Assembly (NCBI GenBank): GCA_003144275.1 | Contig: NJBF01000001.1 | Coordinates: 161,902 to 193,901 of the forward strand | Reading direction: 5' to 3' | DNA length: 32,000 nucleotides | DNA from: Candidatus Heimdallarchaeota archaeon B3_Heim | GTDB lineage: Archaea; Asgardarchaeota; Heimdallarchaeia; Hodarchaeales; Hodarchaeaceae | Part shown: one piece after another, positions 3,236 through 3,329 of the stretch | Position numbering within the stretch: position 1 is the first letter of the stretch | Layout: each line of letters opens with the position of its first letter | Translations under genes and position numbers: made by a program | The notes under the pieces: model-generated | The model's input: the letters and a program-made list of their open reading frames with translations, nothing else | Databases searched by the model: none | Told to the model about the DNA's origin: nothing

Positions 3236-3329
3236 GGAAGGATCCAATGATGTCTCTAGCCCTACCGATAAGGAAAACTGTGTAAAGTATCCCTAAGTGA
3301 TGAAGATCTTGAGTATAGAGGATCCTTTC
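3236..3329 (+). ncRNA. Box C/D guide sRNA candidate 1
   Basis: 10-bp terminal stem (3236-3245/3320-3329). C ATGATGT 3247-3253, 11-nt guide, D' CCGA 3265-3268, imperfect internal hairpin, C' GTGATGA 3297-3303, 12-nt guide, variant D TAGA 3316-3319. Confidence 0.7.

Follow-up and report, generated by a model that had tools for sequence, protein, structure and literature searches.

When an sRNA is directed at a tRNA, its spare guide is usually dismissed as an orphan. The locus described here raises the question of what such a guide is for, as its second guide is conserved as strictly as the first and the intron tag that it matches is found in two families and in two different introns. The locus lies in a 32,000-nt stretch of contig NJBF01000001.1 from the archaeon B3_Heim (the window), whose genome is an archaeal MAG of 3.95 Mb with 36% G+C. 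We argue that it encodes a box C/D sRNA of the Hodarchaeales whose D guide would direct Cm34 of tRNA-Leu(CAA), whose D' guide would dock on pre-tRNA-Leu(UAA), and which would form two k-turns. Judged on sequence evidence, we consider this explanation as a whole to be probable. The argument starts from what can be read directly, namely the sequence features, their conservation and covariation, the two complementarities, and the genes for fibrillarin and Nop5.

Layout and conservation of the sRNA

The sRNA occupies positions 3236-3329 of the + strand (94 nt). Reading its letters gives the order stem, box C, D' guide, box D', hairpin, box C', D guide, box D, stem, and in full GGAAGGAUCC-A-AUGAUGU-CUCUAGCCCUA-CCGA-[28 nt]-GUGAUGA-AGAUCUUGAGUA-UAGA-GGAUCCUUUC. 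An earlier note on the same DNA had described this arrangement of stem, boxes, guides and hairpin, and the letters match it exactly; the long terminal stem (10 bp) and the long D'-C' hairpin (28 nt) are both there. The sRNA sits between a gene of the histone-deacetylase (HDAC) family upstream (2097-3140, +) and a cytidylyltransferase-like gene downstream (3345-3809, -), both assigned with Pfam. Its features are these.

3207..3214, + strand: TATA-like box TTTAAAAT, read in the sequence and a putative promoter by its position; it ends some 22 nt upstream of the sRNA's first G
3236..3245, + strand: 5' strand of the terminal stem, GGAAGGAUCC, pairing with 3320-3329
3247..3253, + strand: box C, AUGAUGU; the genus form is AUGA[U/C]G[U/G], with the UGA core invariant in 20 genomes
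3254..3264, + strand: D' guide CUCUAGCCCUA, 11 nt; its core UCUAGCCC pairs with GGGCUAGA in the pre-tRNA-Leu(UAA) intron
3265..3268, + strand: box D', CCGA; the genus form is C[C/U/A]GA
3269..3296, + strand: internal D'-C' hairpin, imperfect, 28 nt, from folding; it would be the regular stem of a second full k-turn
3297..3303, + strand: box C', GUGAUGA; [A/G]UGA[U/C]GA in 20/20 genomes
3304..3315, + strand: D guide AGAUCUUGAGUA, 12 nt, antisense to nt 31-41 of mature tRNA-Leu(CAA)
3316..3319, + strand: box D, UAGA; UAGA in the window's clade, C-N-G-A elsewhere
3320..3329, + strand: 3' strand of the terminal stem, GGAUCCUUUC; 10 bp with the 5' strand, including one G.U
3330..3334, + strand: AUUUU run directly 3' of the stem, a plausible archaeal oligo-T terminator; the run is absent from some orthologues

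The Rfam search returned no family at gathering score. Its top match, SNORD91, scored 27.4 bits (E = 0.1) where the threshold is 51, and the resemblance is one of layout only.

Of the 21 other genomes in the GTDB genus, 19 give a blastn match to the sRNA, with identities of 70-99%; together with its own genome this makes 20. The cytidylyltransferase-like gene is convergent with it at all 20 loci, and the identity of its protein falls to 39-49% in the 15 genomes that do not belong to the window's own clade. Both guides are invariant across the 20 genomes (CUCUAGCCCU for D', GAUCUUGAGU for D), the box cores likewise, and the guide spacers hold their lengths of 11 and 12 nt throughout the genus. 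A covariance model built from the genus alignment recovers all copies as well as more distant ones in other families. On this comparative evidence the locus is a genuine box C/D sRNA and not a chance arrangement of letters.

There is also a divergent copy, at about 1489-1581 of locus L030 in G016 and in L031 of G001. It keeps the D' guide exactly, has CCAAG at the D' and D sites (GA to AA), and has U in place of C in its D guide, so that G37 would face this U in a U.G pair. With CCAAG in place of both D' and D, the gene may be decaying, or it may use an unusual k-turn. A further small observation concerns the two guides themselves. According to RNAalifold, CUC at the start of the D' guide (3254-3256) can pair with GAG in the D guide (3311-3313) in 20/20 orthologues; the pairing may represent a closed resting state, or it may be fortuitous, given that both guides are conserved.

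Two guides and two leucine tRNAs

The earlier note called the D guide an orphan and proposed searching the host tRNAs, among other RNAs, for complementarity to the guides. Such a search contradicts the orphan label. Mature tRNA-Leu(CAA) contains ACUCAAGAUCU, an 11-nt target at nt 31-41 that is Watson-Crick complementary to the D guide AGAUCUUGAGU at 11/11 positions, and the fifth letter upstream of box D pairs with the wobble nucleotide C34, as the N+5 rule has it. A published criterion for a target is at least nine contiguous Watson-Crick pairs around N+5 (PMC6009581); the D guide has 11 such pairs, with C34 at that position. By our own arithmetic, chance alone would give about 0.002 exact 11-mer matches within about 8 kb of tRNA and rRNA. 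The signature of C' box plus guide occurs in 70 of the 83 genomes of the class, with the reversed control near zero.

The gene in question (G000:C57:80141-80256) passes the cut-off of the tRNA family with 34.8 bits and has an intron at 37/38. The spliced tRNA reads ...GACAGACUCAAGAUCUGU..., and its anticodon arm is ACAGA-CUCAAGA-UCUGU. In this genome the 11-mer exists only after splicing. The precursor offers ten Watson-Crick pairs and one G.U, and the D-guide match in the gene, ACUCAAGGUC, was found by allowing one G.U pair. In two orthologous genes without an intron (G006, G002) the target is uninterrupted. The intron varies across the genus: it lies at 37/38 in some genomes, within the 5' strand of the anticodon stem in others, and is missing from the rest; the mature arm keeps the 11-mer throughout. 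The last letter of the D guide is U in most genomes, which adds a U.G pair with G30. There is a lesson here for target prediction in intron-rich archaea: the D target is invisible in the sequence of this genome and becomes visible only after splicing.

Other candidate targets of the D guide were rejected. Exact 12-mer matches on C46, C55 and C70 are put down to chance: they fall on the wrong strand of DNA that looks coding. The window itself has a second tRNA-Leu(CAA) gene (30741-30829, -), which has no intron, an acceptor GCCGGAG, a D arm UGGCGGAAUUGGUAGACGC and the loop UUCAAAA; this loop excludes it as a target. The gene looks bacterial-type, unlike the archaeal intron-bearing gene at C57:80141-80256; transfer, a mobile element or contamination may account for it.

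We propose that the sRNA is independently transcribed and would form a methylation-guide particle with L7Ae, Nop5 and fibrillarin, both expression and protein binding being predicted here. Genes for fibrillarin (271 bits) and Nop5 (224 bits) stand side by side in the genome (C57:54997-56547). In this particle the D guide would pair with nt 31-41 of tRNA-Leu(CAA) and bring C34 to the fifth nucleotide upstream of box D, with Cm34 as the predicted product.

The D' guide leads to a different leucine tRNA. The gene for tRNA-Leu(UAA) (G000:C80:35415-35573, +) has two introns, and at 35453-35460 it carries the motif GGGCUAGA, with which the guide core UCUAGCCC forms 8 bp. This is one pair short of the nine contiguous pairs given above, and the pairing is to an intron. 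The motif is an invariant 8-mer in the first intron, after the D arm, in 19 of 20 aligned orthologous genes; its flanks are variable and a covarying hairpin follows it in the intron. The exception is G020, whose intron carries GGGCUAAA while its D' guide is unchanged; G022, which belongs to the order as well, has just UGGGGC..GAC of the expected motif. We suggest that the D' guide is a docking arm and not a methylation guide, one that would hold pre-tRNA-Leu(UAA) before splicing by means of GGGCUAGA.

Among tRNAs, the anticodon arm of this one (CUGGA-CUUAAGA-UCCAG) also ranks second as a match for the D guide, U34 being engaged in a G.U pair. Methylation reportedly requires Watson-Crick pairing at N+5 (PMC6009581), so the G.U at U34 argues against methylation of tRNA-Leu(UAA), and U34 may be left unmethylated by this particle. 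The candidate outcomes of docking are methylation of U34 despite the G.U pair, chaperoning of the precursor, or timing of its splicing. No separate UAA-type guide was found in the genome search. A candidate for a second tRNA-directed sRNA at C84:15344 has no surrounding boxes and was rejected as a chance match.

The same complementarity appears in the sister family f3. Its orthologues have the D' guide UCUA[G/A]CCCUU, and in the largest f3 genus pre-tRNA-Leu(UAA) has only the canonical 37/38 intron. AAGGG[U/C]UAGA, which gives 10 pairs, is found there in 23 of 25 genomes, in a tRNA gene that was located by means of the motif itself (blastn had first given tRNA-Leu(UAG), and an anticodon-arm pattern gave chance matches). 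All five guides with A in that genus (5/5) face U in the motif and no A:C combination occurs, an outcome with a probability of about 0.4 by chance according to our own arithmetic. This change is one-sided, from G.U to A-U, and is statistically weak. A stronger argument is that the complementarity persists, again to tRNA-Leu(UAA), though the motif sits in a different intron. Rough arithmetic of our own, with the choice among tRNAs allowed for, puts the joint chance of both intron matches at no more than about 1e-5. The nucleotide at N+5 differs between the genera, being the third G of the motif in one and the first G in the other, so selection seems to act on the pairing itself and not on methylation of a fixed intron nucleotide.

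The most serious alternative keeps the Cm34 guide on tRNA-Leu(CAA) and takes the D' guide to be an orphan or to have some other target, with an intron match that has no function and a motif that is kept for splicing or folding. There is precedent for it, since tRNA-targeting archaeal sRNAs with one guide used and the other without a target are described (PMC7994747). The pairing in the genus comes to 8 bp, and guide and motif are both invariant there, so that no compensatory change occurs within the genus; against this, the complementarity recurs at 10 bp in another family and in a different intron of the same tRNA. Both G020 and G022 depart from the motif pairing, and folding predicts no special exposure of GGGCUAGA, the mean unpaired probability being 0.34 compared with 0.44 for the folded stretch (the pre-tRNA 5' end through the anticodon arm).

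Against an orphan stands the finding that the D' guide has changed no more than the D guide, in spite of the divergence of the neighbouring protein in 15/20 genomes; with so much change around it, something selects the D' guide. If the guide had another target one would look for it elsewhere in these genomes, but counts of the D' 10-mer target in the genus equal those of the reversed-pattern control, and in G006, G007 and G014 the sole genomic AGGGCTAGAG is the sRNA gene itself. The motif is, moreover, carried by the very tRNA whose anticodon arm comes second among the matches of the D guide. Weighing these points, we regard the orphan explanation as rather unlikely and prefer the docking arm. 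Among the papers searched, none describes a D' arm pairing with a tRNA-intron tag. We believe the pairing is well supported as a fact of sequence and plausible as a function.

Two further sites came up for the D' guide. A split match across the D-loop intron of tRNA-Met(CAU) (C50:49408-49513) was rejected: the mature D loop, as seen in orthologues that lack the intron, is GGUUAGAGC, and between genomes the AGGGN part of the match is variable. Among non-coding sites, only G000:C25:17459 (-) can pair with the D' guide along 11 nt when one G.U is allowed (UAGGGUUAGAG); it lies about 25 nt downstream of a TATA-like box.

A role as an rRNA methylation guide fares much worse. It is the role that one would expect from the class, as 56% of Pyrobaculum C/D guides and most archaeal guides target rRNA (PMC6009581), and the earlier note had tentatively placed the D' target in SSU near E. 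coli 650. The best pairing there comes to only 7-8 of 10 positions. Neither guide has a match of at least nine pairs in this genome's own SSU, spacers or LSU 1-1156, or in the SSU and LSU pieces of G007, G004, G016 and G001. The best rRNA matches carry at least 1-2 mismatches over 10 nt, in the genome's own rRNA as in that of G007 (SSU and LSU 1-1452) and G004 (LSU 1068-2973), two genomes that carry the same guides as the window's sRNA. In favour of an rRNA target, the middle of the genome's own LSU gene is unassembled, with C88 ending at LSU position about 1150. Runs of N break up the rRNA region of G009. We consider an rRNA target very improbable, and the two leucine tRNAs remain the preferred targets.

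The rRNA genes themselves gave some side observations. Stand-alone copies of the last 250-300 nt or so of LSU (model positions 2721-2973, with the sarcin-ricin loop) are present on C65 (L004) at 12431-12734, 3498-3825 and about 74, and on C9 at about 43. The SSU gene of G007 (L117, G007:C9, 1695-3919) has an interruption of about 750 nt between model positions of about 731 and 732, likely an rRNA intron. The SSU of the window's own genome is without an insert of this type.

Stems, k-turns and the long hairpin

The earlier note proposed aligning the orthologous spacers for covariation. In that alignment the terminal and the internal stems covary across orthologues. Pairing is kept in 88.6% of stem cells, compared with 67.9 +/- 1.2 when shuffled and 41-55% when the partners are slid, and changes on both sides occur at 19/19 stem pairs (12/12 in helices 3 and 4). 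One example of a compensatory change is ACUU/GAGU in the terminal stem of G010. The alignment was fitted to the covariance model and is biased towards the structure, so we take these figures as supportive and not as proof. Upstream, 17 of 20 loci have an element resembling BRE/TATA (ccgataagcTTATAA or similar) at the same distance from the first G, about 22-25 nt.

The idea that the inverted repeat is a mere bidirectional terminator, with boxes that arose by chance, was the fallback of the earlier note and draws on the position between convergent genes and on the AUUUU run after the stem, but boxes and guides alike are conserved in 20 genomes, which refutes it. Of these genomes just 5 have the HDAC gene next to the sRNA, most copies have a promoter-like box of their own, and the sister-family orthologues have an end stem of only 3-4 bp; we give the terminator reading practically no credence.

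The sRNA has a variant box D, and it is important to realize that the variation follows a pattern. Most members of the genus have C-N-G-A as box D, and U-A-G-A is confined to the window's clade. The second letter of box D and the fifth of box C vary in concert, in the combinations U.A, C-G, U.U, U.C, C.U and C.A. The variant box is normal for this RNA family because the co-varying letters fit the tolerated third k-turn pair after two G.A pairs. The claim that a k-turn can still form with this box is borne out by the orthologues: their variable letters stay within what the third and fourth k-turn pairs allow, and the UGA and GA cores are invariant.

The other end of the RNA depends on the internal hairpin. 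This segment folds as a hairpin of 27-33 nt in 20/20 orthologues despite its divergent sequence, and since the sequence drifts the hairpin is not a third antisense element. It begins directly after D' and stops three letters before the GA of C', so C'/D' can form a full k-turn and not a K-loop. The C'/D' motif in archaea is usually a K-loop (PMC6009581), which the hairpin would here convert into a second full k-turn. A spacer of 28 nt and a length of 94 nt stand well outside the short D'-C' spacer (about 3-10 nt) and total length (about 50-60 nt) of archaeal box C/D sRNAs; the short spacer is typical of these RNAs and does not define them.

The distribution of the hairpin indicates where it came from. 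In the second family of the order the D'-C' hairpins are 24 nt (G023) and 21 nt (G022) long, and G022 has an end stem of 10 bp. The orthologue in sister family f3 is a C/D sRNA of about 60 nt with an end stem of 3-4 bp and a D'-C' spacer of 4-6 nt; one f3 genus (G044) has a spacer of 19 nt, the other f3 genera 4-6 nt. The long hairpin is thus common to both families of the order and absent from sister families, and for this reason the long D'-C' hairpin with its two k-turns looks like a derived trait of the order for this RNA and not an inherited one, as far as the sequences of the orthologues tell. A long internal hairpin and a long end stem would have been gained in the order, giving two true k-turns, a layout that is common in eukaryotic snoRNAs. 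By the same comparison with the sister families, the two-k-turn form would have arisen within the order, with no inherited link to snoRNAs.

The earlier note went further and read the long snoRNA-like design as lineage-wide. This part of the reading holds for the order, where both families have the long hairpin and where a second C/D RNA in the window (7063-7146, +) has a 37-nt hairpin-bearing insert between D' and C'. It does not extend to the sister family, whose orthologue is of an ordinary length of about 60 nt. A census of long C/D RNAs in the genome with a very strict regular expression gave this sRNA and one doubtful match.

Known systems and what the pairing would mean

The Cm34 part of the explanation has a close parallel in Pyrococcus, where the first anticodon base of both tRNA-Leu(CAA) and tRNA-Leu(UAA) is a predicted sRNA target (PMC7994747). 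Those RNAs are of the same class as ours, have the same predicted target in C34 of tRNA-Leu(CAA), and follow the same N+5 logic. These predictions for the same position make the proposed Cm34 guide a function of a known kind, and in that sense an ordinary one. The differences lie in the construction. Pyrococcus is described as having separate sRNAs for Leu(CAA) and Leu(UAA), each of about 50-60 nt with a K-turn and a K-loop, whereas here there is one RNA of 94 nt with a D'-C' hairpin (27-33 nt in the orthologues), and its second guide matches a tRNA intron.

A second parallel is sR-tMet of Haloferax volcanii, which guides Cm34 of elongator pre-tRNA-Met by a pairing that includes the intron and so acts before splicing (PMC2584109). 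Its halobacterial relatives have degenerate boxes and a D'-C' region of 19-21 nt, compared with 4-10 nt in other orders (PMC2584109). The likeness is considerable: a trans-acting C/D sRNA for a wobble C34, degenerate boxes, a long D'-C' region, and paired intron letters. However, the intron letters of sR-tMet extend the anticodon duplex of one guide, and the tRNA is Met and not Leu. In our case the pairing uses a separate guide arm, the motif lies tens of nucleotides away in another intron, and the tRNA is a different one from the best methylation target.

The box C/D RNA encoded in the pre-tRNA-Trp intron of Euryarchaeota (Cm34, Um39) is similar in that guided 2'-O-methylation of the anticodon arm is tied to an intron-bearing precursor. 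There the intron itself is the guide and both guides methylate the exon; here the sRNA has a free-standing gene and the intron supplies the target motif.

Eukaryotic box C/D snoRNAs are reported to have extra base-pairing elements (van Nues et al. 2011), which are said to strengthen substrate binding. The sRNA resembles them in having an accessory pairing beside a methylation guide, two full k-turns and a long internal region. The difference is that the extra pairing of the snoRNAs lies in the internal region and goes to rRNA near the methylated site, whereas here it would be made by the D' guide itself, and the hairpin sequence is not conserved. Some phylogenies place the Hodarchaeales lineage next to the eukaryotes.

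We would go one step further, and only tentatively. In the Heimdallarchaeia one C/D guide RNA may handle two leucine tRNAs, with its second arm docking on an intron tag of pre-tRNA-Leu(UAA) that is kept although the position of the intron differs between families; the case for this is nearly balanced and leans slightly to the side of doubt. If it is true, an archaeal tRNA intron has a selected function, either in recruiting the substrate or in timing a wobble modification before splicing, and archaea have accessory pairing like that of snoRNAs together with a two-k-turn architecture. A functional pairing would also bear on why archaeal tRNA introns persist, and it could be tested in a simple reconstituted system.

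The tRNA genes of the genus are rich in non-canonical introns (C50:49408-49513, -; C80:35415-35573, +; loci L153-L174), tRNA-Met(CAU) having one in the D loop and tRNA-Leu(UAA) having two introns. The counts of tRNA genes vary with the search in the same genome: ARAGORN gives 34 candidates with introns allowed and 16 without, and the tRNA covariance model gives 26.
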